DNA of 64,000 nucleotides from Trueperaceae bacterium (GCA_965213925.1 OZ243927.1:1088001-1152000), one strand, 5' to 3'. Shown: positions 10,026 to 53,554, numbered from the stretch's first letter. Notes: generated by a model from the sequence alone, not told the origin. Translations and numbers: made by a program.

Positions 10026-10068
10026 TAATTCCTAAAGGAATTATCCTGAATGTAACGAGTCGAAAAGA

Positions 10069-10134
10069 CACGGATTCTGGTTGTGGACGGAACAAACTCG
10101 CTAAAGTTTGTGCCGTGTTCAACCGGAGTCCGTA
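10069..10134. mobile_element. Short copy of the same MITE family
   Basis: CACGGATTCTGGTTG...CAACCGGAGTCCGTA inverted ends. Confidence 0.6.
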
Positions 10135-10269
10135 TCACGCCACTATCAAAGAGCCAAAGCTCTGCCGCGTAAGAGACCATCACCTGACTGTCTATCCGTC
10201 CACCGCCACACGGAGCTTGATACAATGCGTGCGCCTTGAGAGGTCGCTCAAGGACCCCGAGGAAGCCTA

Positions 10270-12236: not shown

Positions 12237-12364
12237 AATTTATCCCATTAAAGCAAATTGCACTCCAAAATAAACGTGGTACTTTGGGGGGTGCTTGTAC
12301 CACGTTTCTACGTTTCGTTACGCATTTCTCTATGAACTCACGCTCATCTACTTGCAGCGCCTGA

Positions 12365-12880: not shown

Positions 12881-13049
12881 CACTTCCAAAATATACTGAG
12901 ACAAAGTGCCGCAGGTCTCATCAACTAAAGTGCCTGCTAGACATTGTTCTTCACAGTGCGAGCGTCTCTGACCAGATGATACCTGCTGTAAGTATGAAAA
13001 ATCACAGGTGGTAAACCGCGCGAGCAGGGTTAAAGTAGAGGACACAGAC

Positions 13050-16506: not shown

Positions 16507-16686
16507 ACCATGAGATATGTACTCGAACCTGCAAAGCTTCATCGCCGAACTGGAAAAGCGTGGCGAGCTTATCCGCATCAAAGAAAGTGTCTCGCACCAT
16601 GAGATATGTACTCGAACCTGCAAAGCTTCATCGCCGAACTGGAAAAGCGTGGCGAGCTTATCCGCATCAAAGAAAGTGTCTCGCAC
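16507..16686 (+). repeat. Exact 89-bp tandem duplication of the 5' end of the UbiD-family gene
   Basis: The unit starting ACCATGAGATATGTACTCG begins at 16507 and again at 16596. Confidence 0.95.
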
Positions 16687-18480
16687 GAACTAGAAATCAC
16701 CGAAATCGCAGACCGCATGGTCAAACAGGGCGGTCCTGCGCTCCTATTTGAGAACGTCGAAGGCAAAAGCTTTCCGCTCGTTATCGGGCTTTACGGCACG
16801 CGAGAGCGCATGGCGCTCGCGCTCGGCGCAGAGAGCCTAGACGCGATTGGCGAGCGCATCCGCAACCTCACCGAGGTCAAGCTGGGCGGCGGATTTTTAG
16901 GTCTCGCCTCGAACCTGCCGAAGCTCAAAGAACTCGCCTCACTGCCGCCTAAGCGTGTGCGCTCGGGTCCGGTGCAAGAGGTGGTATGGCGCGGCGATGA
17001 GGTGGACTTGCACAAACTTCCCGTGCTGAAATGTTGGCCCCAAGACGGCGGTCCCTTCGTCACGCTGCCTTTGGTCACCTCTAAAGACCCCGAAACAGGC
17101 GACGTCAATATCGGCATGTACCGGATGCAGGTCTTTGACCACAACACGACGGGGATGCACTGGCAGCGGCACAAGACGGGGGCAAGGCACCTAGAGAAAG
17201 CGAAGAGGTTGGGCACAAGGCTCGAGGTTGCCGTCGCTTTAGGTGGAGACCCCGCGCTCACATACGCGGCGACCGCGCCTATTCCACCGATTCCCGGCAT
17301 CAATGAGTTCTCGCTCACCGGTTTTTTGAGGGGAAAATCTATCGAACTTTGCAAGGGCGTCACGGTAGATTTGGACGTTCCGGCGCAAGCGGAGTTTGTT
17401 TTGGAGGGTTACATCGACCCGAACGAACCCTGGCGCGCCGAGGGACCCTTCGGCGACCACACGGGCTTTTACACCCTCCAAGACCTCTACCCCGCCTTTC
17501 ACGTCACTGCGATTACGATGCGCAAGAACCCGGTCTATCCCGCGACCATCGTGGGGCGTCCGCCGATGGAGGACGCCTACCTCATCGAAGCGTCTGAACG
17601 CATCTTTCTCGTTCCGGCGCAGCTCATCTTACCCGAGCTGCGCGACTACCACATGCCGCCCGCGGGCATCGCGCACAACTTGGTCAATATCGCCATCGAC
17701 AAGGAATACCCCGGTCAGGCGTACAAGGTCGCTAATGGACTTTTAGGGCTCGGGCAGATGATGTTTGCAAAGGTCTTGCTCGTCACGGATGAAGAGGTAG
17801 AGCCGCAGCGTCACCTAGCGTTCTGGCGCACTGTGCTCAAAAACGCCGTGCCGGGACGCGACTCGCAGTTTGCGAAGGGTCCGACCGACGTGCTGGACCA
17901 CTCGAGCCGCGCCTGGAGCTACGGCAGTAAGCTTATCGTGGACGGAACCGTAAAGCATGACGAAGAGGGGGAGAATGCAGCCTGGCAGCCTAACCCGACA
18001 CGCTTAGAGAAGGATTTACCGAAACACCCCGAGGTTGCGCGCCAGCATCAGTTGGCGGGCGGCTTCTGGTTCATCACGGCGCAGAAGAGGCGGGCGGGGC
18101 AGGGTCAGCGCTTGGGCGAGTGGGCGGCGCAGCAACCGCACGCGGAAGGCGTAAGGCTCATCGCAGTGTTGGACGAAGAGACGAACCCGCAGGACTTCGA
18201 GGACTGTATCTGGACGCTCTTAAATAACATCGACCCCGAGCGCGACGTGCAGATTTTAGAGGGGCCGAGCGGTCCGATGTTTGTGATGGACGGCACGCCT
18301 AAACTCCTTGAAGAGGGCTTCTCCCGCGACTGGCCCGATAAAATTACGATGACGAAAGCCGTTCAGCGCAAAGTGGATGAGATGTTGCCGCGCTTGGGTT
18401 TGGCTGGGACCATAAGTAGAGAAGAAGCTGTGTATCCAACGAAAGGAAAACTTTCTGAGCCTGTAACCGAACGGTCGTAG
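16606..18480 (+). CDS. UbiD-family menaquinone biosynthesis decarboxylase (futalosine pathway, MqnL-like)
   Basis: NIGMYRMQ, EGPFGDHTGFY, GLGQMMFAK motifs; mqnB in the same window. Confidence 0.9.
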   Translation: MYSNLQSFIAELEKRGELIRIKESVSHELEITEIADRMVKQGGPALLFENVEGKSFPLVIGLYGTRERMALALGAESLDAIGERIRNLTEVKLGGGFLGLASNLPKLKELASLPPKRVRSGPVQEVVWRGDEVDLHKLPVLKCWPQDGGPFVTLPLVTSKDPETGDVNIGMYRMQVFDHNTTGMHWQRHKTGARHLEKAKRLGTRLEVAVALGGDPALTYAATAPIPPIPGINEFSLTGFLRGKSIELCKGVTVDLDVPAQAEFVLEGYIDPNEPWRAEGPFGDHTGFYTLQDLYPAFHVTAITMRKNPVYPATIVGRPPMEDAYLIEASERIFLVPAQLILPELRDYHMPPAGIAHNLVNIAIDKEYPGQAYKVANGLLGLGQMMFAKVLLVTDEEVEPQRHLAFWRTVLKNAVPGRDSQFAKGPTDVLDHSSRAWSYGSKLIVDGTVKHDEEGENAAWQPNPTRLEKDLPKHPEVARQHQLAGGFWFITAQKRRAGQGQRLGEWAAQQPHAEGVRLIAVLDEETNPQDFEDCIWTLLNNIDPERDVQILEGPSGPMFVMDGTPKLLEEGFSRDWPDKITMTKAVQRKVDEMLPRLGLAGTISREEAVYPTKGKLSEPVTERS

Positions 18481-18513: not shown

Positions 18514-18897
18514 TCAGGCACTCGTGATGTCGGTCTGTGTGAAGTCATCACCGACATAGAGGAGCGGCTTGCGGGCGACTTTAGCGGTGGCGTAGCTGAG
18601 GCAATCGCCAAAGTTGAGTTTCGCAGAGTGATGCCCCTTGCCGAAGCGGAGAAAGGCGCTCGTAGCTTCGCGCCAGTGTTGATCGCCGAAGGGAATAACG
18701 TAGACGGCGTGAAGCTGCAAAAATTCGCCTAGAAGTTCTTCGGCGTTGCTTAGCCTCGAGCCCAAGACAAGGCTCGCTTCAACTAACGTAGGCGCACCGA
18801 CGCTGATCGCGTCAGCCTCACGCAGCTTGCGTAAGAGCGACTCGTAACCTGGTTCTTGTTGAATGGTTGCGACGATCATAGAGGTGTCTAAGACCAC
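18514..18897 (-). CDS. vapC: PIN-domain toxin
   Basis: MVLDTS...LNFGDCLSYA...LLYVGDDF. Confidence 0.92.
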   Translation of the reverse strand: MVLDTSMIVATIQQEPGYESLLRKLREADAISVGAPTLVEASLVLGSRLSNAEELLGEFLQLHAVYVIPFGDQHWREATSAFLRFGKGHHSAKLNFGDCLSYATAKVARKPLLYVGDDFTQTDITSA

Positions 18898-19170
18898 CTA
18901 GAAGCCTTCGGAACCGTAGCCCAAAATCTCGTCTTGTTCCTCTTGAGAAATCCTTCTGCCACGTTTCTCCGCCGGAATTTTAGACCAGATGCGTTCCTCC
19001 ATGAGCGCGGTCAGCTCTTCGTCGGTTAGCTTGCGCTTGCCCGTTAGCTCGAGCCTACTTTTACGCTCCTCCAACGCCCTGCGAATCGCCTGCGTTTTGC
19101 TTTCCCCCGTAAGTTCACTCACCTCAGCGGCGAGCCTCTCAACCTCTTGGTTTTTAATGTTGAGCGCCAT
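18898..19170 (-). CDS. vapB: VapB-type antitoxin
   Basis: MALNIKNQEVERLAAEV...GESKTQAIRRAL; directly upstream of vapC. Confidence 0.88.
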   Translation of the reverse strand: MALNIKNQEVERLAAEVSELTGESKTQAIRRALEERKSRLELTGKRKLTDEELTALMEERIWSKIPAEKRGRRISQEEQDEILGYGSEGF

Positions 19171-19343
19171 AAACTGAGTATGAGGCAAGAGGTGTAAAAA
19201 GTCAAAAAGGGTGTATTCACCATGTTTACGTGTAATGTCTGCGTGTACGGTGAGCCGTCTCCTTCATCTCTTTAATGAAGCGAAACCGCGTCAGGCAAAG
19301 GGTTCTCTCATGAGGTCCCGTTAGGCTCAGCTTAACGCGCCTA

Positions 19344-19489
19344 TACGAATTCCGATTGATTCTTTATCAATCTGAGCGTAGCGAATAGGAACAAATATCT
19401 ACGCAGTTTTCCCGTAGAGAAACGGATGCAGTGTATGGACGTTTCCCCGAGGCTTTTTCTCGGTGATAGGGAATTAAACGTAATCCGTA
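19344..19489. mobile_element. MITE-like element, same family; close relative of 49059-49181
   Basis: TACGAATTCCGATTGATTCTTTATCAATC...CTCGGTGATAGGGAATTAAACGTAATCCGTA; CTA/TTA flanks. Confidence 0.75.
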
Positions 19490-19514
19490 TTACGCCAACT
19501 TGAGGAGGTTGTCA

Positions 19515-20154: not shown

Positions 20155-20236
20155 CACCGTTTCCGATTGATACGGATTCCAATGAGCACGGAAGAAACTC
20201 CAAAGGAGTTTGTGGAGTAATCAATCGGAATCCGTA
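20155..20236. mobile_element. Short or degenerate copy of the TACGGATTCC MITE family
   Basis: TTCCGATTGA-TACGGATTCC...TCAATCGGAATCCGTA. Confidence 0.6.
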
Positions 20237-20291
20237 TAACCCGCTTGGCTTGCCTGCTTTGTCTGACGTTCGCGCCCTGTCGCAACGTATT

Positions 20292-38368: not shown

Positions 38369-41300
38369 GTGTCCTTGCAACTTATCAACCAATACCGCAG
38401 CAAAGTCGAGCGCTACATCCAGTACGGCGGCTCGCGCAACGAACAGAGTCTCCGCAACGCTTTTTATCAACTCTTAGAAGGCTACGCCCGCACGCAGAGC
38501 TTAGAGTTGATTGCTGAACTCGAGTACCGCGTGGGCGGCGTCGCTGTCTACCCCGATGGCACGCTCAAGGATGCCTTGCGCCAAGACCGCGGCTACTGGG
38601 AGAGCAAAGACCAGTACGATGATCTGTACGAAGAGGTCGATAAGAAGTTTCAGAAGGGCTACCCCAACACCAATATCCTCTTCGATGATACGCGGCAGGT
38701 CCTTCTCTATCAAAACGGACAAGAGGTCGGTCTCGCCGTCGTTGAAGACGCCGAGACCTTAAACGCGCTCCTGAGCCAGTTCGTCAGCTACGAGCCGCCG
38801 AGCGTCAAGACCTTCCGCGACGCGATTGAGAAATTCAAGCTCGATATACCCGACTTGCTGGGCGAACTCCGCAAGGTGATTGAAGAGCAAGCGTCAACGA
38901 ACAGCGACTTCACTGCTCAGCGCAACCGCTTGCTAGACCTGACGCAAAAAGCCATCAACCCACACTTAGGTTTAGAAGACGTGCGCGAGATGGTCATTCA
39001 GCACATCCTGACTGAAGGGATTTTCACCTCGGTCTTTAACGACAGCCACTTTCACCGCGAGAACAACATCGCCCGTGAGCTTTACAAAGTCACCGAGACC
39101 TTTTTCACCGGAGCGCTGAGAAAGAATGCGCTTCTCAAAATTGAGCCCTATTACAACGTCATCAAAGCGGCGGCGGCGAACATCGCCAACCACCACGAAA
39201 AGCAAAAGTTCCTCAAGGTCGTCTACGAAAACTTCTACAAAGCCTACAACCCCGCCGCCACTGACCGCTTGGGCATCGTTTACACCCCCAACGAAATCGT
39301 CCGCTTCATGATCGAAGCCGCTGACCACCTCACCCACAAGCACTTCGGCAAGTTTTTAGGCGACGAAGGCGTGAATATCTTAGACCCCGCCACCGGAACC
39401 GGCACGTTCATCACCGAGATTATCGAGTATTTGCCCAAGCACCAGCTCAAGCACAAATACGCCCACGAACTCTTCTGCAATGAAGTCGCGCTGCTGCCCT
39501 ACTACACCGCGAACCTCAACATCGAATACACCTATCAGCAGAAGATGGGCCACTACGCCGAGTTTGAAAACATCGCGTTTGTAGACACCCTAGAAAACCT
39601 CAACTACGTCGGCTCGGAAGGTCAGTTCAGCATGTTCGAGTTGACGGCTGAGAACCTGGAGCGCATCAAGCGGCAGAACGAGAACAAGATTTCGGTGATT
39701 ATTGGGAATCCGCCTTATAACGCCAATCAACTCAACGAAAATGAGAACAACAAGAACCGCTCCTATCCGTTTATTGACGAACGCATCAAAAATACCTATG
39801 TCAAAGAGAGCACTGCGCAAAAGACCAAAGTGTACGACATGTATTCGCGTTTTATTCGCTGGGCGAGTGACCGCGTGGGTGAAAACGGCGTGATTGCCTT
39901 CGTTGTCAACCGCTCGTTCATAGACTCGCACACTTTTGATGGGTTTAGAAAGGTTGTGGCGGAGGAGTTCGGGGACATTTACATTGTGGATTTAGGTGGC
40001 GATGTTCGCGCTAACCCGAAGCTGTCAGGAACGACGCACAACGTTTTCGGAATTCAAACAGGCGTGACAATCGTCTACTTTGTTAAAAGAGAAAAGCGAG
40101 CGGGCAAAGCCAATATCTACTACACGCGCCGTCCTGAGATGGAAACGGCAAGAGAGAAGTTGCAATGGATAAACGTAGCTGACTTCGAGCAACTACCTTT
40201 TAAGCATATTGTTCCGAATAAACGCCACATTTGGATAAATCAAGCTGAGAATGAATGGGACGATTTATTGCCCGTCGCAACCTCAGAAACAAAAGCAGCA
40301 GAAAAACAAAGTGAAATCAATGCAGTATACAAATTTTACTCTCTTGGGGTTTCAACAAATCGTGATGAATGGGTATACGACTTCAGTAAAGACGTTCTTA
40401 AAGAAAAAGTACAGTTTTTTATCAAGTTTTATGAAGCAGACCGAAAGCGCTGGCTAAAAGAAGGAAGAGATAAGAAAACAAGACAAGAAATTCCAATTGG
40501 CGACTTCGTGAATAGAACTATCAAGTGGACAAGTAATCTACAAAATCATCTAGCACGTGGAACCCGTTTGCAGTTTAACTCTAAAAAAATTGTACAGACG
40601 ATGTATCGTCCTTTTGTTACCCAATGGCTCTACTCAGAAGACACAATGTCTGACAGATTAACTTCAAATCACTTCGAAATGTTTGGGTCGAACTTACAGC
40701 AAAACAACACTGTAATAACCTTCTCTGGAAGTGGCGCATCAAAATCCTTTTCCACTTTTGTTACCGATAAGCTATTCAGCCTAGACCTGTTAGAGAAAAC
40801 TCAATGCCTCCCCCTCTACCGTTACGACGACGAAGGCAACCGCCTAGACAACATCACGGGCTGGGGACTGAAGAAATTTCGGGAACACTACGGCGGCGAC
40901 TTCGCTGAAGAACTCGAGCTGCCTAACCTCAAAGTTGTGCAAAAACATTACGCAGCGCTCGAGGCAAAAATCGAAGAGGTCGCCGAGAGGTTGAGGCTCG
41001 AGGATGGAAACGCTGAGAAAATCCGTTTAGAGCATCAGCTCTCGACGTTGAAAGCGCAACTCCTCAACGTCAAAGAGAACGCCGCTATCTTCTGTTACAC
41101 CTACGGCGTCTTGCACAACCCCGCTTACCGCAAAAAGTACGAACTCAACCTCAAGCGCGAGTTCCCGCATATCCCCTTTTACGAGGACTTCGCGCAGTGG
41201 GCCGCGTGGGGCGAGAGGTTGATGAGTCTGCATCTGGACTATGAGACAGTCGCGCCTTATCCCTTGAAGCGTAACGACGCAAAAAGTGTCAAGAACCCGA

Positions 41301-41620
41301 AAGCGAAACTCAAGGCGGACAGGGAGGCGGGGCTGATTGTGCTGGATTCTGAGACGGGGCTCTCCGGCGTGCCGTCTGAGGTGTGGGACTATAAGCTGGG
41401 GAACCGCTCGGCGCTCGAGTGGGTCTTAGACCGCTATAAGGAGAAAAAGCCGCGTGACCCGACCATCCGCGAGAAGTTCAATGCGTATAGGTTTGTGGAC
41501 TATAAGGAAGAGGTCATTGACCTTTTGAAGCGGGTTTGCACGGTGAGTGTGAAGACGGTAAAAATTATCAGAGAGATGGAAAACCTGGAAAAGATAGGTG
41601 TCGAGAAAATCACGGCGTAG
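38369..41620 (+). CDS. Single-polypeptide type IIG/ISP-like restriction-modification enzyme without helicase
   Basis: PD...ESK nuclease motif, LDPATGTG, GNPPY; ISP-like C-terminus (YRPF, YKLGNRSALEWV). Confidence 0.88.
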   Translation: MSLQLINQYRSKVERYIQYGGSRNEQSLRNAFYQLLEGYARTQSLELIAELEYRVGGVAVYPDGTLKDALRQDRGYWESKDQYDDLYEEVDKKFQKGYPNTNILFDDTRQVLLYQNGQEVGLAVVEDAETLNALLSQFVSYEPPSVKTFRDAIEKFKLDIPDLLGELRKVIEEQASTNSDFTAQRNRLLDLTQKAINPHLGLEDVREMVIQHILTEGIFTSVFNDSHFHRENNIARELYKVTETFFTGALRKNALLKIEPYYNVIKAAAANIANHHEKQKFLKVVYENFYKAYNPAATDRLGIVYTPNEIVRFMIEAADHLTHKHFGKFLGDEGVNILDPATGTGTFITEIIEYLPKHQLKHKYAHELFCNEVALLPYYTANLNIEYTYQQKMGHYAEFENIAFVDTLENLNYVGSEGQFSMFELTAENLERIKRQNENKISVIIGNPPYNANQLNENENNKNRSYPFIDERIKNTYVKESTAQKTKVYDMYSRFIRWASDRVGENGVIAFVVNRSFIDSHTFDGFRKVVAEEFGDIYIVDLGGDVRANPKLSGTTHNVFGIQTGVTIVYFVKREKRAGKANIYYTRRPEMETAREKLQWINVADFEQLPFKHIVPNKRHIWINQAENEWDDLLPVATSETKAAEKQSEINAVYKFYSLGVSTNRDEWVYDFSKDVLKEKVQFFIKFYEADRKRWLKEGRDKKTRQEIPIGDFVNRTIKWTSNLQNHLARGTRLQFNSKKIVQTMYRPFVTQWLYSEDTMSDRLTSNHFEMFGSNLQQNNTVITFSGSGASKSFSTFVTDKLFSLDLLEKTQCLPLYRYDDEGNRLDNITGWGLKKFREHYGGDFAEELELPNLKVVQKHYAALEAKIEEVAERLRLEDGNAEKIRLEHQLSTLKAQLLNVKENAAIFCYTYGVLHNPAYRKKYELNLKREFPHIPFYEDFAQWAAWGERLMSLHLDYETVAPYPLKRNDAKSVKNPKAKLKADREAGLIVLDSETGLSGVPSEVWDYKLGNRSALEWVLDRYKEKKPRDPTIREKFNAYRFVDYKEEVIDLLKRVCTVSVKTVKIIREMENLEKIGVEKITA

Positions 41621-41751: not shown

Positions 41752-42030
41752 ATGACCTTTAAGTGGGACGAGGCAAAGAGTAGGGGTAACGTCCGCAAAC
41801 ATGGCTACAGTTTTGAGGATGCCGAAAAGGTCTTTTCGGGCGTCTACCTTGAAGTTGAGGATGACCGTGAGGATTACGGCGAGCCGCGCTACCTCGTCTT
41901 CGGGCTTCTAAAGGGCAATGTGGTTGTCGTCTGCTACACACTTAGGGGCGAAGACACATACCGAATCATCTCTATGCGAAAGGGGAACCGTAATGAAACA
42001 GACGCCTACTACCAATACGCAGGTTTCTAA
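41752..42030 (+). CDS. brnT: BrnT-family toxin
   Basis: FKWDEAK...KHG..F, YGEPR, RIISMRK. Confidence 0.9.
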   Translation: MTFKWDEAKSRGNVRKHGYSFEDAEKVFSGVYLEVEDDREDYGEPRYLVFGLLKGNVVVVCYTLRGEDTYRIISMRKGNRNETDAYYQYAGF

Positions 42031-42289
42031 AACCGATTGGAAGCGTGTGGATAAGCTGCGAGACGAAGATATAGACTACTCTGACATTCCGCCGACCTCA
42101 CCCGAGTTGTTCGCCAAAGCTGCGGTGAAAGAGGGTGGCGTGAATGTTCGTGAACCCAAACAAGCAATTTCGCTCCGGGTAGATAGAGACACTTTGGCTT
42201 GGTTCAAAGCGCAGGGTGAGGGCTATCAAACACATATAAACGCCGTTTTAGAAGCGTATGTAGCGGCGCAGAAAGCAGCGAACGAATGA
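41993..42289 (+). CDS. brnA: BrnA-family antitoxin
   Basis: TDW..V, ISLRVDRDTLAWFK..G.GYQT.IN. Confidence 0.9.
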   Translation: MKQTPTTNTQVSKTDWKRVDKLRDEDIDYSDIPPTSPELFAKAAVKEGGVNVREPKQAISLRVDRDTLAWFKAQGEGYQTHINAVLEAYVAAQKAANE

Positions 42290-44884: not shown

Positions 44885-46235
44885 GAGCAGCCTCCAGCGG
44901 GCGGGCGCTGTCTAAAATAGTTTGTAAGGCGTTCACGAGTGCGTCTATGTCTTCGGCTCGAGTCAACTCCGTTGCCGAGAAGAGCACAACGTTATTCAGA
45001 CCGTTGTCCCCTAAGCCGTAGTGTTTGGGTACGGGCACGCCGGCGTGGACGCCTCGTTCGGCTAATTTGTGGCGAAGTTGGGCAGCGGGTAGGGGAGAGC
45101 GCACCGCGAACTCGTTGAAGAAGGTGCCGGGGAGAACCTCGAGCCCGACGTCTGCTAGCTTATCTGCCAGAGCGTGCGCGTTCTGTACGCTTTTCGTTGC
45201 CGCTTCGACGAGTCCCTGTGGACCGAGCGCCGCCATATTCACTGCCGCCATAAGCGCCGCGAGCTGGTGGTTTGAGCAGATGTTCGACTTCGCCTTCGAG
45301 CGGCGGATGTGCTGCTCGCGTGCTTGCAAGGTCAGCACGAAGGCGCGTTTGCCGTCTACATCCGTCGTTTGCCCGACTAAACGCCCCGGCATCTGGCGCA
45401 GGAGCTTTTCCGTCACGACCATATAGCCGAAGTTCGGTCCGCCGAAATTCACTGGGTTGCCGAGGGTTTGCCCGTCGCCGACCGCCATGTCCGCGCCGTA
45501 CTCGCCCGGCGCTTTGAGGACTGCTAAAGAGAGCGGGTCGCACACCGCGACGAAGAGCGCGCCTGCGGCGTGTGCCTTTTCAGCGAGTGCGGGCATCGCT
45601 TCTAAATAGCCCAAGAAATTCGGGTTTTGCGCGACAAGACAAGCGGCGTCTTCTGCGACTTGGACGCCCGGTGTGACGAGGTCCTCGAGCGCGGACTCTT
45701 CAATTTCGATGCCCAAAGGCTTGAGGTAAGTCGCTAGCACTTCCCTGGATTCAGGGTGCACGCCTTGACTCACCACGACCTTCTCGCGCTTGGTTTGCCG
45801 CACGGCTAAAAGTGCCGCCTCCGCCACGGTGGACGCGCCGTCGTACATCGAGGCGTTCGAAATCGGCAAGCCCGTGAGTTCGCTCATCATCGTCTGATAT
45901 TCGAAGGTCGCTTGCAGGAGTCCTTGCGCCACCTCCGCTTGGTAGGGCGTGTACGAAGTGACGAACTCGCTCTGCATGGCGAGGTGCGGCGTGACTGAGG
46001 GGATGAAGTGCGCCTGGGGACCGCCGCCCAAGAAGGTGGGGCCGTCCGCCTTGTTTTTAGCGGCAAGGTCGCCGAGGTGACGAAGGAGTGAAACCTCATC
46101 TAAACCTGCGGGTAGGTCGACGTCAGGATGCTGCAGTTCGGCGGGGATGTCTGCGAAGAGGTCGTCCACGCTGGCTACACCGATGGCTTGCAGGGCGCGT
46201 TCGATGTCCTCTTGCGTATGGGGGATATAGTTCAT
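44877..46235 (-). CDS. gcvPA: Glycine dehydrogenase subunit 1
   Basis: YTPYQAE, NASMYDG, REQHIRR. Confidence 0.96.
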   Translation of the reverse strand: MNYIPHTQEDIERALQAIGVASVDDLFADIPAELQHPDVDLPAGLDEVSLLRHLGDLAAKNKADGPTFLGGGPQAHFIPSVTPHLAMQSEFVTSYTPYQAEVAQGLLQATFEYQTMMSELTGLPISNASMYDGASTVAEAALLAVRQTKREKVVVSQGVHPESREVLATYLKPLGIEIEESALEDLVTPGVQVAEDAACLVAQNPNFLGYLEAMPALAEKAHAAGALFVAVCDPLSLAVLKAPGEYGADMAVGDGQTLGNPVNFGGPNFGYMVVTEKLLRQMPGRLVGQTTDVDGKRAFVLTLQAREQHIRRSKAKSNICSNHQLAALMAAVNMAALGPQGLVEAATKSVQNAHALADKLADVGLEVLPGTFFNEFAVRSPLPAAQLRHKLAERGVHAGVPVPKHYGLGDNGLNNVVLFSATELTRAEDIDALVNALQTILDSARPLEAAHD

Positions 46236-46237
46236 CG

Positions 46238-46621
46238 CTAGTCCTCTTCCGCCGACGCTTCGTAGTCTTCGGCGCTTAAAAGGCTCCCGGTTTCGCTCTC
46301 GTCCGACATGCGCAGTTTGAAGAGCCAGCCGCCTTCGTAGGGCGATTCGTTGAGCTTTTCGGGGGCGTCCTCGAGTCCCCCATTCACCTCGACGACCTCA
46401 CCGGAGACGGGCGCGTAGATGTCTGAGGCGGTCTTGACGGATTCGACGACGGCCACTGGGTCGCCTGCGCTAAACGTCTTGCCCTCCTCGGGCAACTCCA
46501 CGAACACCACGTCGCCTAGCTGGTCTTGCGCGAAGTCGGTGATGCCGACCGTGACGGTGTCGCCCTCTACTTTCGACCACTCATGGGTTGCGCTGTACTT
46601 TAAGTCTTTGGGGGTTTCCAT
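46238..46621 (-). CDS. gcvH: Glycine cleavage system H protein
   Basis: VESVKTASD lipoyl-Lys motif. Confidence 0.97.
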
Positions 46622-46852
46622 GCTCACTCCTTCACTTGCTTCCACTTGCTTACGCCAATACGTGTTCCGGTACGATGAGTTTGCGGCTGGGGCGCGTTGC
46701 GGTTTGCGTCATCATTGCTTTACGGAAAATAATCTACTTTCTGATTCTAAGGCTTAGCGGACAAAGGCGCAGTAATAAGGGCGTATTTGTGAGATTTTGT
46801 GCTCCACGGTAGCGCTCTCGGAGATGGGACTCAATAAGCCTGATAAAAAAGT

Positions 46853-47908
46853 TTAGGGATAAAAGCGCGGTTTGACGACGTCCGCGTGGACGCCTTGACC
46901 GCGTATCTCGACCGCTAACGCGGTGCCGAGTTCGCTCAACGCCGTATCCACCCAAGCCATCGCGACGCCCTCCCTGGTCAGCGGCGAGATCGTACCGGAG
47001 GTGACCTCGCCTACGACGCTGTCCTCATGAAGCACGTGATAGCCCTGCCGCGCCACACCGCGCTGGCGCAGCCGCAAACCGACGAGCTTGCGCTCACACG
47101 CGGGGTTCCACATCGACTCTCGTCCATAGAAGGGCTTGTCTTTGACGACCCAGGCGTAAGGGGAGCAGAGCGGGTTGGTCGCTGCGGTGAATTCATGACC
47201 GAATAAGGGAAAGCCCGCCTCGAGCCGGAGGGTGTCGCGCGCGCCCAGACCGCAAGGCGTCGCACCCTCTTCGGTCAGCGCCCGCCACACCTGCGGCGCG
47301 TCCTCCGCCTCGCAGAAGATTTCGAAGCCGTCTTCGCCCGTGTAGCCCGTGCGGGCGAGCCTCACCTCTTTGTCTGCCAGGGTCGTCTTAAGCGTGCGGT
47401 TTTTCTTGAAACTCGTGATGTCTTCAAAGGTCAGGCGGCTCATCATGAGCGCCGCGCCCGGACCTTGCAGCGCCATGAGCCCCCAGCGCTCAGACTCGTT
47501 TGCGACGTTGGCGTCGTACGCTCCGGTGAGCTGCTCTAAGTGGGGAACGACTTCGTCTACGTTCGAGGCGTTGCAGACGATCAGGTACTCGTTCTCCCCT
47601 TCGCAGTAGATGTAGAGGTCATCGATTAGCCCGCCCTGGTCGTTCGGGAGCATGGAGTATTGCGCTCTGCCGGGTGTGAGCTTGGCGGGATTATTGAGCG
47701 TCGCGTAGCTTAGAAAATCCGTAGCCGCCGCGCCCGTAACGCGAATCTCCCCCATGTGGCTCACGTCGAAAAGACCCGTGCCTTCACGCACCGCGAGATG
47801 TTCCTGGTTGATGCCTGTAGCGTACTGGATAGGCATCTCCCAGCCCGCGAAGTCCACCATGCGTGCGCCGTGTTCGATGTGCAGGTCGTAAAGTGTCGTG
47901 CGTTTCAT
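46853..47908 (-). CDS. gcvT: Glycine cleavage system aminomethyltransferase
   Basis: LFDVSHMG, RTGYTGEDGFE, LRLEAG. Confidence 0.96.
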   Translation of the reverse strand: MKRTTLYDLHIEHGARMVDFAGWEMPIQYATGINQEHLAVREGTGLFDVSHMGEIRVTGAAATDFLSYATLNNPAKLTPGRAQYSMLPNDQGGLIDDLYIYCEGENEYLIVCNASNVDEVVPHLEQLTGAYDANVANESERWGLMALQGPGAALMMSRLTFEDITSFKKNRTLKTTLADKEVRLARTGYTGEDGFEIFCEAEDAPQVWRALTEEGATPCGLGARDTLRLEAGFPLFGHEFTAATNPLCSPYAWVVKDKPFYGRESMWNPACERKLVGLRLRQRGVARQGYHVLHEDSVVGEVTSGTISPLTREGVAMAWVDTALSELGTALAVEIRGQGVHADVVKPRFYP

Positions 47909-48009
47909 CCCTGATGGTAGCATAGTGCTCTCGGCTGCGATTCGCGAAGGCTATGTATTGGACCCTGCTCAGTTAGGTCTGAGCGGTTAAACTAGTGGGA
48001 GGGTGCGCT

Positions 48010-48312
48010 ATGGGGATGCTCGAGCTAGGAGAGGGCAAAAAAGAAAAACGCGCCGTCGTGATAGGGCTCAGCGTCATTCACGTGGGCGCGCTAGCCGGCA
48101 TCATCACGGTGTTCGCTGCGGGGCTCTCGAGCGAGATGACGTTCTCCCCGATGCTCACGGTCGTCGCTGTTGTCGCGACGACGCTCTGGCTCTTCTCCTT
48201 CATTTTGCTCTCGGTCAATATTGCGTATTACATCCTTGCGCCTGAAGAGAAAGAAAATACGAGCGCTGAAAAAGATAACTGTCCATCAGAAAGCCCCGAC
48301 CCTTCACCTTGA
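48010..48312 (+). CDS. Small two-TM hypothetical protein
   Basis: GGGAGG upstream of ATG; two hydrophobic helices. Confidence 0.55.
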   Translation: MGMLELGEGKKEKRAVVIGLSVIHVGALAGIITVFAAGLSSEMTFSPMLTVVAVVATTLWLFSFILLSVNIAYYILAPEEKENTSAEKDNCPSESPDPSP

Positions 48313-48494
48313 GCCTGCATCCGAGCCTGGGGTAGTCAGCAGGCGTGAAGCGCGGTTAGTTGAGCCGATGAAGTGTCAGCAACTGACTGTTTTGCAGTTG
48401 CGGGTTGTGCCGTGGGGACGTGACAGCGGTGTGTCAGGATGAAACGAAAGGCGAGCGTACGGCTGCAAAACCTCTACGCTAGCGCCTGCGAAAC

Positions 48495-48662
48495 TTACGA
48501 AGGCTTGGCGCTCAGTGACGGCTCGTCGGCGCGCACTTCTTTAACTGCCCTTTGTTGCTTGGCGCGGCGGCGCAACGCTTCGATAAGGGCTAAGTCGTTG
48601 ACGAGCAAAAGCCCTTTTTCGTTGACCGGAAATTCGTCCAAGTAAACCTTTGGCTGGTTCAT
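48495..48662 (-). CDS. 55-aa small protein, not in ORF track (MNQPKVYLDEFPVNEKGLLLVNDLALIEALRRRAKQQRAVKEVRADEPSLSAKPS)
   Basis: AGGAGG-TATTT-ATG; translated by hand. Confidence 0.7.
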   Translation of the reverse strand: MNQPKVYLDEFPVNEKGLLLVNDLALIEALRRRAKQQRAVKEVRADEPSLSAKPS

Positions 48663-48702
48663 AAATACCTCCTGATTACAGTTATAGTATAGGGATACTC
48701 AA

Positions 48703-48742
48703 CTTTGCGGCGTCTTAGCAGCGCTGCTAAGACGCCGCAAAG
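48703..48742. repeat. Perfect loop-less 40-bp palindrome
   Basis: CTTTGCGGCGTCTTAGCAGC|GCTGCTAAGACGCCGCAAAG. Confidence 0.95.
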
Positions 48743-48884
48743 GACGAAAGTATAAACCGCTCAGTTTTTCTTAGCAGCGCCTTAGCAAGGTCGCTAAGGC
48801 TAAATTAAGACGTCTTCATTAAACTAGATTTTAAGAAAGCTTTCCGAAGAGGTCGGAAACATAATTCACATCTGGGAGGATGTC

Positions 48885-49001
48885 ATGCGTAAAGTTTTAA
48901 TTGCTACAGTGACGGTGGGGTTATTTTTCAGCAGTGTTGCGCTGGCGGGACCGAGCAGAGTTACCTTCGGCGCGAGTACAAATCAAACGACAAGCCGATA
49001 A
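48885..49001 (+). CDS. 38-aa secreted pre-peptide, not in ORF track (MRKVLIATVTVGLFFSSVALA-GPSRVTFGASTNQTTSR)
   Basis: GGGAGG RBS; n/h/c-region Sec signal ending A-L-A; terminator directly downstream. Confidence 0.8.
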   Translation: MRKVLIATVTVGLFFSSVALAGPSRVTFGASTNQTTSR

Positions 49002-49017
49002 ATCCGCTAAAAGTCCA

Positions 49018-49046
49018 GCCCGGTCCCACGTGACCGGGCTCTTTTT
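49018..49046 (+). terminator. Intrinsic terminator of the peptide gene
   Basis: AGCCCGGTC-ccacgt-GACCGGGCT-CTTTTT. Confidence 0.85.
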
Positions 49047-49058
49047 ATGGTGGTGTAA

Positions 49059-49181
49059 TACCAATTCCGATTGATTCTTTATCAATCCGAGCGGATGCGA
49101 GCAGGAACGGATATACGGATGGATTGTATGGACTATCATCGAACGCTTTTCTCGGTGATAGGGAATTAAACGGAATCCGTA
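49059..49181. mobile_element. MITE-like element with TAA target duplication
   Basis: TAA|TACCAATTCCG...CGGAATCCGTA|TAA; similar to 19344-19489. Confidence 0.75.
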
Positions 49182-49266
49182 TAACGCGTTTTGTGTATGC
49201 AGTAACGCAAGAGCCGTTAAAGACGTAACTCAATTTTTGCGTACATACGAATAGGCGTTCGTTGAC

Positions 49267-51717
49267 TTAATTATACTCGAGGGCTAACGCCTTAGCCTTG
49301 GTACGCGCTAGAAGCGTACGCGGATCGCCTGGCGGGAGAGCCTGCAGAAGTCGCTCCCAGACAGCGAGGTCGTCAGCCATATATTCGCTGTAGGCGCTCA
49401 GCGCATCTACGTCGTTTGACGCGAGCATCGCTTCGTACATCTGCGCCTCGAGGTGTTCGCGCAGACGCTCGAGCGCGGGCGCTTGCGCCTCCTCTAAAAG
49501 TGGACCTTTATAGAGCGCCATCGCCTCTTTGAGCTTTCCGCTGAGTGAAAACTTGCCGAACTCGAGAAAGTCAGCGCGGACGTCGTACTCGAGCCGGTAA
49601 GGTGGGTTCGACACGGGAATCCACCCGCGCAGCTTTTTGATCGCAACGTAGAGCGCGTTCGTACTACCCGTTTCGCCGTAGAGTTCGAGCGCGAGCTTCT
49701 CCGAACTGACGCCCATCGGGTGCTGCGCTAGAATCGCTAAAAGCTCGAGCGACTGTAGCGGAAGGTCCAGCCGTTTCCCCTCTAACCACACGTCTCGGTG
49801 CCCTAAAAAGCGAAGCTCCAGGGTGACCTCGCCCAAGACTGTATCCCAGAGGTTGCGAAAGTGCACTTCGGGGCCGGACAAGCATCTGAGGCCGCTCTCG
49901 GCTAAATCGCTCAGCGATGCGTGGGTGAGCTGAGACCGCGCCGCCGCTTCGTCGTTAAGCTCCATAAGCGCGTAGGCTCTGTAGAGCCTCGCTCGAGCCT
50001 CTAGGTAAGCAGGGAGCTGTATATCCTCTAAAAGCTTTCCTAAAACCTTGATACCTTTATGCGGAGCTGTGAAGCATAAAACCATGCCTTGCGCGAGCAC
50101 GGCGGGCTGATGATAGATAGGCGCTAGGTCTTCGGTCAGGTGATAGATACGTTCTGCTATCTGGACCGCCTCTTCGTACGCTTCTAAGTCCAACAATGCC
50201 TTGACGAGAGGAAGCCCGTTTCGCCCTAGGTCCTCGCGCGGCGCGCCTTCATAAGCGAGGCGATAGAGGGGTAGGGCTTTCGTGACCTCTCCAGTAGCGA
50301 CGTAGTAGTCGCCTAGAGTCTCTCTGAGCGATTCCGCGCACTGGTCGAAAATACCTGCGACAGTACGCTCGCTCTCGCTCAGCAAACTACCCAACCCGCT
50401 TATCTCACCTGAAAGAATGCGCGCAAACGCATAGTCGTTGATGAGCAGGAGCTTACGCGAGATGTCTTTCATCCCGCTCTTTTCGAAGAGGTCTAGGCTC
50501 CAGCCGCCCCAGTGGAGCGCTTCGCGGTAGTGACCGGCGTCTATGAGCCTTACCGCAAGCGTACCTGCGCTACGCACGGCGTCGTCGTCTCGCCCTTTGC
50601 GCTCGGCAAGCCGCACCGCCCGTTTAAGAAAGCCGATACCTTTCGCAGTGTCCCTCTCAAAGAACCCCTGCATATGGAGCGTAAAGGGCGTCTCTAGCAG
50701 CGCAGCCCGCTGCACCTCAGCGCGCGCTTCTTCGTGGGTGAGGAAAATAACCGCGTAGAGCGCTCTTAACTCGGGCGCTTCGTGGCGCTGAAGGTAGTTT
50801 TGGATGCGCTCTTGGAGTTCCTCGTAGCGGTTGAGCCGAATGCCCGCGGAAAGCTTCCAGAAGAACACGGTGTCGTCTTCGTAGTCGGCGGGTAGAAGGT
50901 CGAGGTAGTGCCAGAGCCGACCGTGCAGCCCCTCGTTGATGAAGTGCGGTCCCGCCTCTGAAAGAACGGTCGACACCCGTTCGGGCAGGTGCCGCACCAC
51001 GAGCGCGAGGGCGCGCCCCCACTCCTCGCGCTCGACGAGCACCTCGAGCAACTCGGATGGCGGCACCGCGATTTCCGTGCCCGGAGGGAGTTTGGGTCCC
51101 CACAGGGTAGGCATGAGCGGCGAGGGCAGCCCTACCTTGTCGTGCAGGGCGAGGTTAAACGTTTCGTAGGCGTAATCCGCCTCTTCAAGCAGCGCGCTGA
51201 CCTCTTCGCGGCTGAGCATCCCGCCCGCGAGCGCGCACGCCTCCTCTTCGGTGAGCTGGAGCGCAGCTTCATCTAAATAGACCGCTTTGGGAACCTCGAG
51301 CGGCACTTTAGAGACGAGAACGAGGCGCTCTGCGTCTGACCCCCTGAGCAGATCGATAAGCTCCGGCGCGTGTTCAGCGCCGAAAAGTAAATAGGTAGGT
51401 CTGCCGTAAACTTCAGCGAACGCCGCTAGAATCCTGAGCCCCGCAGCGACGGGCAACCCCGGCGCGACGAGGGGCACGTCCAGCGCGGTGGAAACCGCCT
51501 CGGAAAATTTGAGCGCTTGCGCCTGCGCGTCACAAGCGTCGGCTTCGTCGAGTTCCAGGACCATAAGCGGTTTCGCTTCTTTTTTGAACTCGCTAAAGAG
51601 TCGCTGAACGCCTAAGTCAGGGCGGTGCGGTAAGATGACCGTGCGTGCACCTTTCAGTTGCGCCAACCTTTTTGAGAGCCACATATGGAATACTATACAC
51701 AAAATGTGGCTCACCAT
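49267..51717 (-). CDS. Large regulator: degenerate MalT/STAND-like N-terminus, central TPR-like helical repeats, C-terminal wHTH plus BTAD-like (SARP-type) region
   Basis: Helical repeats (GHYREALHW, GEVTKALPLY); LELRFLG...LLAILAQHPMG...LALELYG; ALYKGPLL. Confidence 0.75.
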   Translation of the reverse strand: MVSHILCIVFHMWLSKRLAQLKGARTVILPHRPDLGVQRLFSEFKKEAKPLMVLELDEADACDAQAQALKFSEAVSTALDVPLVAPGLPVAAGLRILAAFAEVYGRPTYLLFGAEHAPELIDLLRGSDAERLVLVSKVPLEVPKAVYLDEAALQLTEEEACALAGGMLSREEVSALLEEADYAYETFNLALHDKVGLPSPLMPTLWGPKLPPGTEIAVPPSELLEVLVEREEWGRALALVVRHLPERVSTVLSEAGPHFINEGLHGRLWHYLDLLPADYEDDTVFFWKLSAGIRLNRYEELQERIQNYLQRHEAPELRALYAVIFLTHEEARAEVQRAALLETPFTLHMQGFFERDTAKGIGFLKRAVRLAERKGRDDDAVRSAGTLAVRLIDAGHYREALHWGGWSLDLFEKSGMKDISRKLLLINDYAFARILSGEISGLGSLLSESERTVAGIFDQCAESLRETLGDYYVATGEVTKALPLYRLAYEGAPREDLGRNGLPLVKALLDLEAYEEAVQIAERIYHLTEDLAPIYHQPAVLAQGMVLCFTAPHKGIKVLGKLLEDIQLPAYLEARARLYRAYALMELNDEAAARSQLTHASLSDLAESGLRCLSGPEVHFRNLWDTVLGEVTLELRFLGHRDVWLEGKRLDLPLQSLELLAILAQHPMGVSSEKLALELYGETGSTNALYVAIKKLRGWIPVSNPPYRLEYDVRADFLEFGKFSLSGKLKEAMALYKGPLLEEAQAPALERLREHLEAQMYEAMLASNDVDALSAYSEYMADDLAVWERLLQALPPGDPRTLLARTKAKALALEYN

Positions 51718-51748
51718 TCTCTTTTGTAAGATATTGCACGGCTGAGTT

Positions 51749-52858
51749 GTGAGATATTATACTGCCCACGTAACATTTTCTAAATCTCAAGAGGTCGTAG
51801 GGAGAGAATTTTTGTCTACGTCTTGTTCGCAAAGGGCAGTTTCAAGGCGTGGTCGCGCAACAAAAGGAGATGACGTTCGTGCAAAACCTCATTTCGGTAC
51901 CTGTTATAGTTACGCAAAGGAGCACCGAGTCATAGAGTCTGAGTCAAATAAGACGAGCGAGCGGCTGCCCAGAGGCTTCGAGCTTATTCAGCATGACAGC
52001 GGCATCGAGACGATCAGTGAGGGCGCGTTGCAGCGGCGTCTTTTAGTGACGCAGCCGGGCGGCGTCGAGCTGCACGAGTTGTCGTTGCGGCGCGGCGAGA
52101 CGCTCACGGTTGCGCCCCGCGAGGGGGTGCAAGAAAGCTACTACATGCTTAAAGGGGTGCTCGTCGGCGCAAACGTGCGCCTGGTCGTCGGTGACTGCTT
52201 GCTGAGCCGCACGCCTGACACGCTCCTCACCCTGCGGGCGGAAGCGTCGACGCGGCTTCTGTATGTCTCGAGCGTCCCCACCTTCTGGAGCGTCTCGCAG
52301 ACGCTCCGCGAACTGATGAATCTAGCGGTTTCCATCGAGAAAAAAGACGGCTACACCGCCGAGCACTGCCACCGTTTGCAGCGTCTGGCGCTGGCGGTGG
52401 GCAAGCAGCTCGGGTTGCCGCAAGAGCGGCTCTACCTCCTAGACGTAGCGGCGTTTTTGCACGACGTAGGCAAAGTCAGGGTGCCCGTCGAGATTTTGCA
52501 AAAACCCAGCCCGCTCACCCCGTCCGAGTGGCGGCTCATCAGGCAGCACCCCACGTTCGGGCGCGAGATGCTAGAGGATACCCTCATCGCCGAGGCTGGA
52601 CCTATCGTCGAGCAGCACCACGAGCGGCCCGACGGCTCGGGCTATCCTTACGGACTCCGGGGGAGCGAAATTTTACTCGAGGCGCATATCGTCGCCATCA
52701 CCGACGCCTTCGACGCGATGACCACCGACAGACCCTACCGCGACGCGCTACCTAGAAACGCTGCGATTGAGCGCATCAACCGACTTGCGGGTAAGCACTA
52801 CGCCGAAGAGGTCGTCGAGGCGTTTTTAGAGGTGATTGCGTCGGACGAATGGCTATAG
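51749..52858 (+). CDS. HD-GYP phosphodiesterase-domain protein with cupin-like N-terminus (true start probably downstream, near 51930)
   Basis: KDGYTAEH, LHDVGK, HHERPDGSGYP, DAFDAMTTDRPYR. Confidence 0.88.
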   Translation: MRYYTAHVTFSKSQEVVGREFLSTSCSQRAVSRRGRATKGDDVRAKPHFGTCYSYAKEHRVIESESNKTSERLPRGFELIQHDSGIETISEGALQRRLLVTQPGGVELHELSLRRGETLTVAPREGVQESYYMLKGVLVGANVRLVVGDCLLSRTPDTLLTLRAEASTRLLYVSSVPTFWSVSQTLRELMNLAVSIEKKDGYTAEHCHRLQRLALAVGKQLGLPQERLYLLDVAAFLHDVGKVRVPVEILQKPSPLTPSEWRLIRQHPTFGREMLEDTLIAEAGPIVEQHHERPDGSGYPYGLRGSEILLEAHIVAITDAFDAMTTDRPYRDALPRNAAIERINRLAGKHYAEEVVEAFLEVIASDEWL

Positions 52859-53554
52859 GTTATGAGCGGCTCGAGACTTCAAAAAGCTAAGCAGCGCCTC
52901 GTTTACGGCGCGCACCGCTAGAGGCACGTTCCAAGCGCGTTTGTCGCGCTCCCCGACGATGTTGCTGACCCCGCGAAGCTCCGCGAAGGGCACGCCGAGT
53001 GCCAAACAAACCTGCGCCGCCGCTGCCCCCTCCATCGACTCCACCGAGAGGTCGAAACGCTCTCGCAGAGTTTCGGCTCCGCCGAACCTTCCTGTAACCG
53101 TTTCGGAGGTGCCAAAAACGCCCGGCACCGCGCCTGTGATTCTCTCCAAAGCCTCGGTCAACCCCTCGTCCGTTGGAAAGACGTTGTAGTGATGGTCTAA
53201 AAGAGGAAAGCCAACCTCTTCCATCCCCAACCAGCCTTTGTCCGTTACGACGCCCGTGTCAATGTGAACTTCTCGCGCCGCTACCGCGACCATCCCAACG
53301 CTCAAAAACGAGCCGACGTACGCCCCCCCTATACCGAACTGAATCACGCGCTCTGGTTGCAGAGTGTGGACGGCGAGCGCTAAACCCGCCGCCGTGTTGA
53401 CCTTAGCCACGCCCAGATGCGCCAAGCGAACCTCTTGAGCGTTGACGCTTCCCGAGTAGAGCTGACCTAACGGAAAGTCAAGTTCGCGGACCTCTTCTAG
53501 CGCTTCTCTTAAAGGTCTTCCTTCCATTTCGGTTGCGGTGATAAGTAGGGTCAT
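52853..53554 (-). CDS. mqnB: Futalosine hydrolase
   Basis: PNP/MTAN fold: GVAKVN, GIGG, ESMEGAA, RGVSN.VG.RD..W. Confidence 0.85.
   Translation of the reverse strand: MTLLITATEMEGRPLREALEEVRELDFPLGQLYSGSVNAQEVRLAHLGVAKVNTAAGLALAVHTLQPERVIQFGIGGAYVGSFLSVGMVAVAAREVHIDTGVVTDKGWLGMEEVGFPLLDHHYNVFPTDEGLTEALERITGAVPGVFGTSETVTGRFGGAETLRERFDLSVESMEGAAAAQVCLALGVPFAELRGVSNIVGERDKRAWNVPLAVRAVNEALLSFLKSRAAHNL

Follow-up and report, generated by a model that had tools for sequence, protein, structure and literature searches.

A 64,000-nt stretch of the genome of a Trueperaceae bacterium (GCA_965213925.1, OZ243927.1:1088001-1152000; hereafter the window, whose positions are counted from its first letter) encodes, within positions 48885 to 51717, a 38-codon precursor of a predicted secreted peptide and, convergent with it, a large regulatory protein. 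The two genes probably belong to a phylum-wide cassette, in which a STAND-like regulator with tetratricopeptide repeats (TPRs) and a winged helix-turn-helix (wHTH) domain controls the gene for a secreted peptide through an operator of four half-sites. Judged from sequence comparisons, the pairing of the small open reading frame (mini-ORF) with the regulator is not due to chance, and the mini-ORF is a conserved neighbor of the regulator gene across the Deinococcota. The strongest evidence that the regulator would act on the peptide promoter is the conserved operator, which lies in that promoter and appears to link both genes functionally; this element was missing from the initial annotation of the window, in which the peptide-regulator pair had been proposed.

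The peptide gene, its regulator neighbor, and the operator

The peptide precursor gene occupies positions 48885..49001 on the plus strand and consists of 38 codons and a stop codon (translation MRKVLIATVTVGLFFSSVALAGPSRVTFGASTNQTTSR). The ribosome-binding site GGGAGG (48874-48879, plus strand) lies 5 nt 5' of its ATG, and GGAGG or GGGGAG is found at the equivalent place in the peptide genes of relatives. The gene has its own intrinsic terminator (49017..49048, plus strand), a hairpin of 9 pairs, 7 of them G-C, at 49017-49040, followed by the T-run CTTTTTAT; a repeat search agrees with this assignment. The ORF, ribosome-binding site, and terminator described in the initial annotation are therefore all present, and its description of a Sec-type signal followed by 17 residues agrees with inspection and with a hydropathy scan. 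Signal-peptide features were judged by eye and with a simple script (Kyte-Doolittle scale). The signal-peptide segment (residues 1-21, 48885-48947, plus strand) starts with M-R-K, with 2 basic residues among the first five, continues with a hydrophobic core of 15 residues (best 12-residue mean 2.52, from residue 4), and ends in A-L-A at positions -3 to -1, ahead of Gly22. No lipobox Cys is seen in the precursor on inspection, and its n-, h-, and c-regions are typical of a signal-peptidase-I substrate. The predicted mature 17-mer left after the cut, GPSRVTFGASTNQTTSR (48948-48998, plus strand), is hydrophilic; its assignment draws on homologues, selection, and hydrophobicity. No sigma-70-like promoter scoring at least 9/12 precedes the peptide gene on the same strand, which fits an activator-dependent promoter. 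An Rfam scan of positions 46000-53000 at E values of up to 1 returned just one sub-threshold match, to the uxuA sRNA (48753-48828), which was taken as a chance match, given its 22.8 bits versus the cut-off of 66.8.

A scan of species-representative genomes yielded nine loci (L001 to L009) encoding regulators with 28 to 41% identity to that of the window, and the small ORFs flanking them were screened with a crude signal-peptide filter. A convergent signal-peptide ORF of 41 to 44 aa, with a ribosome-binding site, was found directly after the regulator stop codon in L001 (and its assembly duplicate L002), L003, L004, and L005. Two Deinococcus megaplasmids, L010 and L011 (33% identity, 91% coverage), came from a tblastn search of plasmids; their convergent signal-peptide ORFs have 57 aa (by our own count) and 53 aa, respectively, and only one of the two is annotated in its record. 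The same search detected the Thermus thermophilus plasmid L012, which encodes a shorter, 494-aa regulator homologue beside transposase genes; its mini-ORF candidate is weaker, with no obvious ribosome-binding site and an overlap with the regulator end. Two contigs stay outside the informative count, L006, which ends 308 nt past the regulator gene, and L009, which ends inside it. Altogether, 6 of the 8 informative loci, or 7 of 9 with the doubtful Thermus case, have a convergent mini-ORF with a signal peptide behind the regulator homologue, so that the micro-ORFs looked for in the flanks of homologues on the advice of the initial annotation are there in most cases. The regulator gene of L007 is followed by recX. 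In L008, a distant member of the family is directly followed by an Opp/Dpp-type peptide ABC importer operon (4651-8126; SBP_bac_5, BPD_transp_1, OppC_N).

Used as a protein query, the window peptide retrieved 3 homologues, and a peptide profile matched 16 of 35 candidates (E values from 5e-16 to 2e-6, against 5.8 billion proteins), including the 4 peptides of L001, L003, L004, and L005. Three genus-level peptides, and regulators 79 to 87% identical to that of the window, come from contigs of equal size (4738, 3055, and 34052), and peptide and regulator are therefore taken to share contigs. The codons of the peptide gene were compared between L003 and L004, whose regulators are 85% identical. 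The 22 signal-peptide codons differ by 8 synonymous changes and 1 non-synonymous change, and the corresponding proportions (pS of 0.471 versus pN of 0.020) argue that the frame is translated. For the 19 codons of the mature part, pS is 0.643 and pN is 0.256, and 11 of the 19 residues of the mature peptides are the same, counted by eye. Within the genus of the window, the signal peptides of 21 residues show either no difference or 1 to 3 substitutions (by eye), and the mature parts differ widely: GPSRVTFGASTNQTTSR in the window, then APGTKTFGANTNQTTNR, GPSKVKPCSVGTSSTQAK, GPTKVKPCGAGSAHAQSK, GPTRGGNICGAGTSHAQTK, and GPNKKFCFSVGTAQTQTK. The export signal is thus conserved, and the exported part diversifies fast. 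With its homologues and signs of purifying selection, the mini-ORF can be regarded as the real, conserved gene for an exported peptide that the initial annotation had seen in it. The N-x-T sequons seen in some mature peptides were dropped as a candidate feature, being not conserved across the genus variants.

Two predicted operators precede the peptide gene. O1 (48703..48742) is a perfect 40-nt palindrome of four half-sites, CTTTGCG-gcgt-CTTAGCA-gc/gc-TGCTAAG-acgc-CGCAAAG, with 11 nt between the half-sites of each pair; in the repeat search, its 20-nt arms are 100% complementary. O2 (48770..48803, plus strand), which ends ~80 nt before the peptide start codon, consists of the direct repeat CTTAGCA-gcgc-CTTAGCA with an 11-nt period, followed by an inverted GCTAAG. 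The pattern TTAGCAN5TTAGCA occurs in a single copy in the 64-kb window (48771-48787, 97 nt 5' of the peptide ATG), and once each in L003 and L004 (99 nt 5' of the peptide ATG); the remainder of the nine loci lacks it. The inverted pattern TTAGC-N4-7-GCTAA is found in the window in O1 and O2 only, with 0.25 expected. An unbiased scan, in which any hexamer had to recur 11 nt on and then to appear twice as its reverse complement, again at an 11-nt distance from each other, with no more than 2 mismatches overall, covered 177,722 nt of the window and 10 loci, the duplicate L002 being left out. It returned 7 clusters, one each in the window (where O1 was the sole match), L001, L003, L004, L005, L010, and L011, and none in L006 to L009; 20 block shuffles gave a mean of 0.2 clusters and a maximum of 1. 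All 7 loci with an operator cluster are those with a confident peptide gene, and the half-sites form one related set (CTTAGCA/CTTTGCG, GTTAGCA, GGTTGC(C), and GGTTAC).

The operator precedes the peptide gene itself in the window, L003, and L004. In L001, it precedes an operon that ends with the peptide gene and includes a radical S-adenosylmethionine (radical SAM) enzyme gene; in L010 and L011, it precedes an LLM-radical SAM-peptide operon; and in L005, it precedes an M16 peptidase gene, with an insertion sequence (IS) element between the operator and the radical SAM gene. The strict operator scan gave no match in L012, where all 5 copies of GGTTACG in the 8.5-kb locus fall in an 82-nt segment located between mini-ORF and radical SAM gene (0.33 expected); this candidate site is irregularly spaced and was recognized by eye and by motif count. 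The presence of four half-sites suggests that an oligomer binds. CTTTGCG was also tried as a regulon-wide half-site and rejected, since it is not enriched (18 found versus 18.9 expected); with it was dropped a candidate operator in the intergenic region between the regulator gene and the adjoining HD-GYP gene.

Architecture of the regulator

The regulator gene is located on the minus strand (49267..51684). Its ORF is open up to position 51717, which led to the 816-aa length given in the initial annotation; its convergence with the peptide gene stands, and the protein probably has 805 aa, because the full-length homologues all begin at Met12 of the longer version (MWL...). An AlphaFold2 model built from a 59-sequence alignment (mean pLDDT of 94.1, pTM of 0.90) comprises a STAND/NOD-like alpha-beta domain with a parallel sheet (residues ~1-190, 51684-51115), a helical arm and TPR superhelix (residues 209-617, 51060-49834), an OmpR-type winged helix (residues 622-704, 49821-49573), and a helical BTAD-like end (residues 705-805, 49572-49270), all on the minus strand. 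A search of Protein Data Bank (PDB) sequences with the family profile supports the two middle parts: positions 350-535 match a consensus TPR protein (E value of 2.7e-12) and the TPRs of kinesin light chain and LGN, and positions 641-705 match OmpR/PhoB-type DNA-binding domains (E value of 5e-4 and weaker). In Foldseek searches of the PDB, the best match to the model was the STAND-TPR protein 6mfv_A (E value of 7.5e-9, 667 aligned columns) and the second was the STAND defense protein Avs3, the remainder being generic TPR proteins. Language-model features place the regulator nearest to clusters of BTAD/AAA_22/WHD_MalT/TPR regulators.

The protein can be described as a STAND-like regulator in which TPRs form the sensor and a wHTH/BTAD-like C-terminal part the output. 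The combination of TPR-like repeats and a C-terminal wHTH/BTAD-like region, noted in the initial annotation, is thus borne out by the PDB profile and the model for the TPRs and the OmpR-type wHTH, with Pfam scores that stay below the curated cut-offs throughout, including that of BTAD (for TPR_12, 26.6 versus 30.1 bits). Of the MalT/SARP-like receptor proposed there, the MalT/STAND-like N terminus stood and the SARP membership did not. As in SARPs, including large SARPs such as AfsR, and in MalT-type STAND proteins, an OmpR-type wHTH is followed by BTAD-like helices and combined with a NOD-like domain and a TPR sensor. In the model, the repeat-type sensor follows the NOD-like domain and the wHTH is a separate effector domain, as is usual in STAND regulators. 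However, the wHTH-BTAD unit is N-terminal in SARPs and C-terminal in the window regulator, so that the order is reversed. SARPs bind direct repeats 11 nt apart at the -35 region. Direct repeats with the same 11-nt period at the predicted target promoter are conserved in the window and its relatives, where, unlike in SARP and MalT systems, an inverted pair of half-sites comes after them; in addition, the Walker A lysine is apparently absent from the window regulator.

The regulator family has 927 representatives at E values of up to 1e-3 and 218 at E values of up to 1e-30, most of them of ~800 to 840 aa and aligning end to end. It carries its own Pfam entry, PF27103, named YTH3_C. No paper on the YTH3_C family was found, and a literature search for YTH3 gave only unrelated papers.

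Radical SAM clusters and flanking sequences

In L001, L010, and L011, the last gene of the operon is the peptide gene, and immediately upstream of it lies a gene for a maturase-like protein with radical SAM and SPASM domains. The best match of this enzyme is TIGR04463, a maturase of peptides synthesized ribosomally and modified post-translationally (RiPPs), at ~176 to 192 bits versus a cut-off of 525, and it is therefore taken to represent an undescribed subfamily of radical SAM enzymes. The neighbor in L005 is a RiPP C-methyltransferase of TIGR03975 (496 bits versus a cut-off of 282), whose ORF spans only profile positions 171-606. In that locus, an IS element (10319-11522; rve integrase and HTH_Tnp_1) lies between the C-methyltransferase and peptide genes and the operator and M16 peptidase genes, so that the cluster has apparently been split by it. 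Along with the radical SAM genes of L001, L005, L010, and L011 are found genes for a major facilitator superfamily (MFS) exporter, M16 peptidases, or an LLM oxidoreductase, and a radical SAM gene and an MFS gene are found near the regulator gene of the Thermus plasmid L012. Just past the LLM-radical SAM-peptide operon of L011 (plasmid of Deinococcus sp. KNUC1210) follow lantibiotic dehydratase genes and two more small hypothetical genes (9937-12238), which may represent a second or hybrid RiPP cluster.

The module is thus related to radical SAM RiPP clusters, the relatives with a maturase gene beside the peptide gene being those from Truepera, Deinococcus, and Thermus. The precursor adjoins a radical SAM maturase gene in L001, L005, L010, L011, and L012 and does not do so in the window, where no Radical_SAM match was found among ORFs of at least 90 aa over 64 kb. 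In a quick midpoint-rooted tree, whose root is arbitrary, the regulators linked to radical SAM genes are the deepest, and the clades of L003/L004 and of the window are nested inside. That the window cassette descends from a RiPP cluster reduced to fewer genes is a reasonable but unproven reading of these data.

The stop codons of the peptide gene and the regulator gene are 265 nt apart in the window, an unusually long spacer because a sequence resembling a miniature inverted-repeat transposable element (MITE) sits inside it (49057..49190); in relatives, the two genes range from a 14-nt overlap to a distance of 25 nt. The MITE-like repeat is ~135 to 155 nt long and has terminal inverted repeats ATAC[CG]AATTCCGATTGA ... 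GGAATCCGTAT. It is not regarded as part of the system. A second copy is found at 19342-19497 and a related end at 20221-20238 on the minus strand, and similar ends adjoin the regulators in L006 and L007.

On its other side, the peptide gene is divergent from a 55-aa ORF (48495..48662, minus strand), which has a strong ribosome-binding site, AGGAGG, 5 nt before its ATG and O1 41 to 80 nt upstream. It has no match to a Pfam or NCBIfam family and no usable Atlas match, and it may be a second, co-regulated target of the regulator. Divergent from the regulator gene is an HD-GYP-type gene (51749..52858, plus strand; HD_5, E value of 5e-31). L003 (8862-10007) and L006 (4641-5756) likewise have an HD_5 gene beside the module. 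Two of the three module-adjacent HD-GYP proteins carry receiver domains; the N terminus of the window protein differs and has no family match. The HD-GYP protein was rejected as a conserved third partner, with only the HD-GYP domain in common, at 39% identity and in 3 loci; it is a possible associate of the module, and its adjoining genes offer hints of a link to cyclic di-GMP turnover.

The window genes with family matches are mostly housekeeping ones, such as the gcvTHP operon, ftsY, gltX, and ribosomal protein genes, and a single-stranded DNA-binding protein with two OB folds is encoded, which fits Deinococcota. A perfect 89-nt tandem duplication (16507-16684, copies 100% identical) overlaps the start of a UbiD-like gene (16606-18480). 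An alpha-amylase catalytic domain (6317-7797) is divided over the overlapping ORFs 6317-7042 and 7039-7797, which suggests a frameshift, due to either a pseudogene or a sequencing error. The window also has a Type ISP restriction-modification gene (38369-41620) and a multidomain PLD/SNF2/Schlafen-AlbA_2 gene (13008-15692), the latter perhaps defense-related, and parts of toxin-antitoxin systems are found near them (PIN/Rv0623-like, 18514-19188; BrnA-like, 41918-42289).

Possible input of the regulator and role of the peptide

Sequence comparisons establish the gene pair, the operator and its position, the export-type N terminus, and the domain composition of the regulator. The proposed control of the peptide gene would begin with an input to the regulator's NOD-like/TPR part, by which the regulator would be converted into an oligomeric DNA-binding form; MalT and AfsR are the STAND regulators on which this switching step is modeled. 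The winged helices would then occupy the operator, which lies over the -35 region or immediately 5' of it, and turn the peptide promoter on, both the binding and the direction of regulation being predictions. The 38-aa precursor would be exported by Sec and cut after Ala21 to give the 17-residue peptide. Several observations weigh against such a cassette. No signal-peptide mini-ORF and no operator were found in the DNA of L007 or L008, both informative loci, and the 12 loci examined compare with 927 family representatives. The Pfam scores of the DNA-binding and BTAD-like parts are low (Trans_reg_C, 18.8 versus 26.2 bits, E value of 0.0017; BTAD, 16.5 versus 22.1 bits, E value of 0.011), and no SARP chain is among the listed PDB sequence matches of the family profile. 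The P-loop region after the first strand reads G25-V-Q-R by eye in place of G-K-T/S; in the family alignment, only Gly25 is invariant there, and the lysine position is not conserved (by eye). The Walker A lysine thus appears to have been lost and the nucleotide site is probably degenerate, so that a STAND-type nucleotide switch may not operate.

The direction of control could also be the opposite one, with the four-site palindromic operator blocking the promoter of the peptide gene or operon until an inducer frees the regulator. The overall dyad symmetry is typical of repressor operators, and a mere ~20 to 35 nt separate the operator end from the first ORF start in L010 and L001, a placement that would fit repression equally well and is another of the points that count against activation. 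However, wHTH/BTAD-type and STAND regulators are mostly activators, there is no consensus promoter ahead of the peptide gene, and direct repeats with an 11-nt period are an activator-type (SARP/OmpR) layout, which makes repression unlikely. That the mini-ORF arose by chance and its adjacency is meaningless is hardly credible: it has merely 38 codons and matches no curated family above the cut-off, but homologues occupy the same position in at least 6 other loci, others are found in databases, and purifying selection, the ribosome-binding site, the terminator, and the conserved operator all speak for a gene.

For the preferred cassette, in which the regulator activates the peptide gene, the nature of the input is a separate matter. 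The exported peptide after re-uptake, closing an autoinduction loop, is the leading single candidate, put forward tentatively; a cytoplasmic cue unrelated to the peptide is roughly as likely. In the latter case, a cluster-situated regulator would sense some other cue, and the peptide would be an output only, a RiPP or a plain secreted product (antimicrobial, metal-binding, or surface-related), maybe matured by an enzyme encoded elsewhere. This is a serious possibility, though one that falls short of probable. The peptide gene ends the radical SAM operon in the deeper relatives, and the pair may therefore consist of a cluster-situated regulator and a product precursor, a further point against peptide sensing. 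The maturases, MFS exporter, M16 peptidases, and LLM oxidoreductase flank the regulator, operator, and precursor in L001, L005, L010, L011, and L012, and the forms linked to radical SAM genes are the deepest in the quick tree. Several genus variants carry one Cys (e.g., KPCGAG and NICGAG), as do the precursors linked to radical SAM genes, and SARP-type regulators are classically pathway activators, as far as the available portions of the sources go. Bufferins, according to the accessible part of PMC11626156, are a precedent for RiPP precursors with a Sec signal. However, the mature peptides of the window and of P0169 lack Cys, no maturase, exporter, or immunity gene is found over the 64 kb of the window or in the ~6 kb on each side in L003 and L004, and the output-only role leaves unexplained why regulator and precursor persist together after the loss of the other genes.

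In a closed quorum-sensing loop, the 17-mer or a shorter piece of it would be re-imported (e.g., by Opp), bind to the TPR superhelix, and activate the regulator, which would induce the peptide gene and other targets; this is possible, at rather less than even chances. An operator in the propeptide promoter next to a gene for a TPR protein is the wiring of an autoinducing pair, and the window and L003/L004 have kept just these two genes of the cluster. The constrained signal peptide and the diversifying mature part (11 of 19 residues shared at 85% regulator identity) recall the pattern of known pherotype systems. The mature peptide of the window is plain as far as can be seen, hydrophilic, and Cys-free, which makes an antibiotic role appear unattractive, and the distant member L008 is followed by the Opp-type operon. 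On the other hand, the TPR region shows no excess divergence over the other domains (71 to 87% versus 74 to 94% identity, in a few pairs of close relatives) and gives no sign of receptor-peptide co-diversification, no peptide permease is found among the window ORFs scanned, uptake must also cross the outer membrane, and the peptide of relatives resembles a RiPP product. The fuller proposal, namely, peptide quorum sensing through an intracellular STAND/TPR receptor in a diderm phylum, derived from a stripped radical SAM RiPP cluster and with the hypervariable mature peptides as pherotypes, is doubtful.

In its layout, the cassette resembles the RRNPP systems (Rap-Phr, NprR-NprX, PlcR-PapR, PrgX, and AimR-AimP), which likewise have a small gene for a Sec-type propeptide directly beside that of a cytoplasmic TPR regulator. 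RRNPP receptors, except Rap, carry an N-terminal HTH. In the window regulator, the N terminus is an additional NOD-like, STAND-type alpha-beta domain and the OmpR-type wHTH is C-terminal. The RRNPP signature, as given in the accessible part of PMC10075063, comprises a propeptide of 10 to 100 aa, a Sec signal, a receptor of 250 to 500 aa, TPRs, and adjacency of the two genes. If its putative Sec signal, judged by inspection and a hydropathy scan, is counted, the window cassette shares four of these five features: a propeptide of 38 aa, the Sec signal, TPRs (in the PDB profile search and the helical-repeat model), and adjacency, as convergent neighbors with only the MITE-like repeat between them. 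Its receptor, with 805 aa, is outside the size range. RRNPP systems also belong to Bacillota or their phages, whereas this cassette belongs to Deinococcota and its relatives are tied to radical SAM maturases. The initial annotation spoke of a system analogous to RRNPP; the analogy holds, and membership in that family is contradicted by receptor size, HTH position, and phylum.

The nearest functional analogue of the relatives linked to radical SAM genes are the streptococcal Rgg/SHP RaS-RiPP operons (streptide and tryglysin, among others), which share a cytoplasmic helical-repeat regulator beside a radical SAM RiPP operon, a small precursor, and a transporter (PMC13361665, PMC9389541, and PMC12322106, in their accessible parts). 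Those systems, as described there, have a separate SHP pheromone gene and a precursor with a leader, whereas here there is a single small gene for a Sec-signal peptide and a regulator of another family. Bufferins also have a precursor whose N terminus is a Sec signal peptide, but they are modified by MNIO enzymes rather than a radical SAM maturase, their precursors bear no relation to those seen here, and the accessible parts of PMC11626156 and PMC12452194 describe no such regulator. No paper describing the present module was found, subscription literature and supplements being outside the search; a search for RRNPP together with Deinococcus gave just one incidental co-mention, and none of the papers retrieved joined BTAD, TPR, SARP, and peptide quorum sensing.

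Peptide signaling through cytoplasmic receptors is regarded, in the accessible part of PMC10075063, as a trait of Bacillota and their phages. If Deinococcus, Thermus, Truepera, and their relatives do pair an exported peptide with a conserved, receptor-like regulator, this would widen the Bacillota-only picture and provide a directly testable system. Even on a conservative view, the findings define an uncharacterized regulator family, the operator that goes with it, and a class of Sec-signal peptide precursors that is new and linked to a radical SAM/SPASM maturase, likewise uncharacterized. Through the operator, the regulon could be sought and such peptide clusters could be activated.

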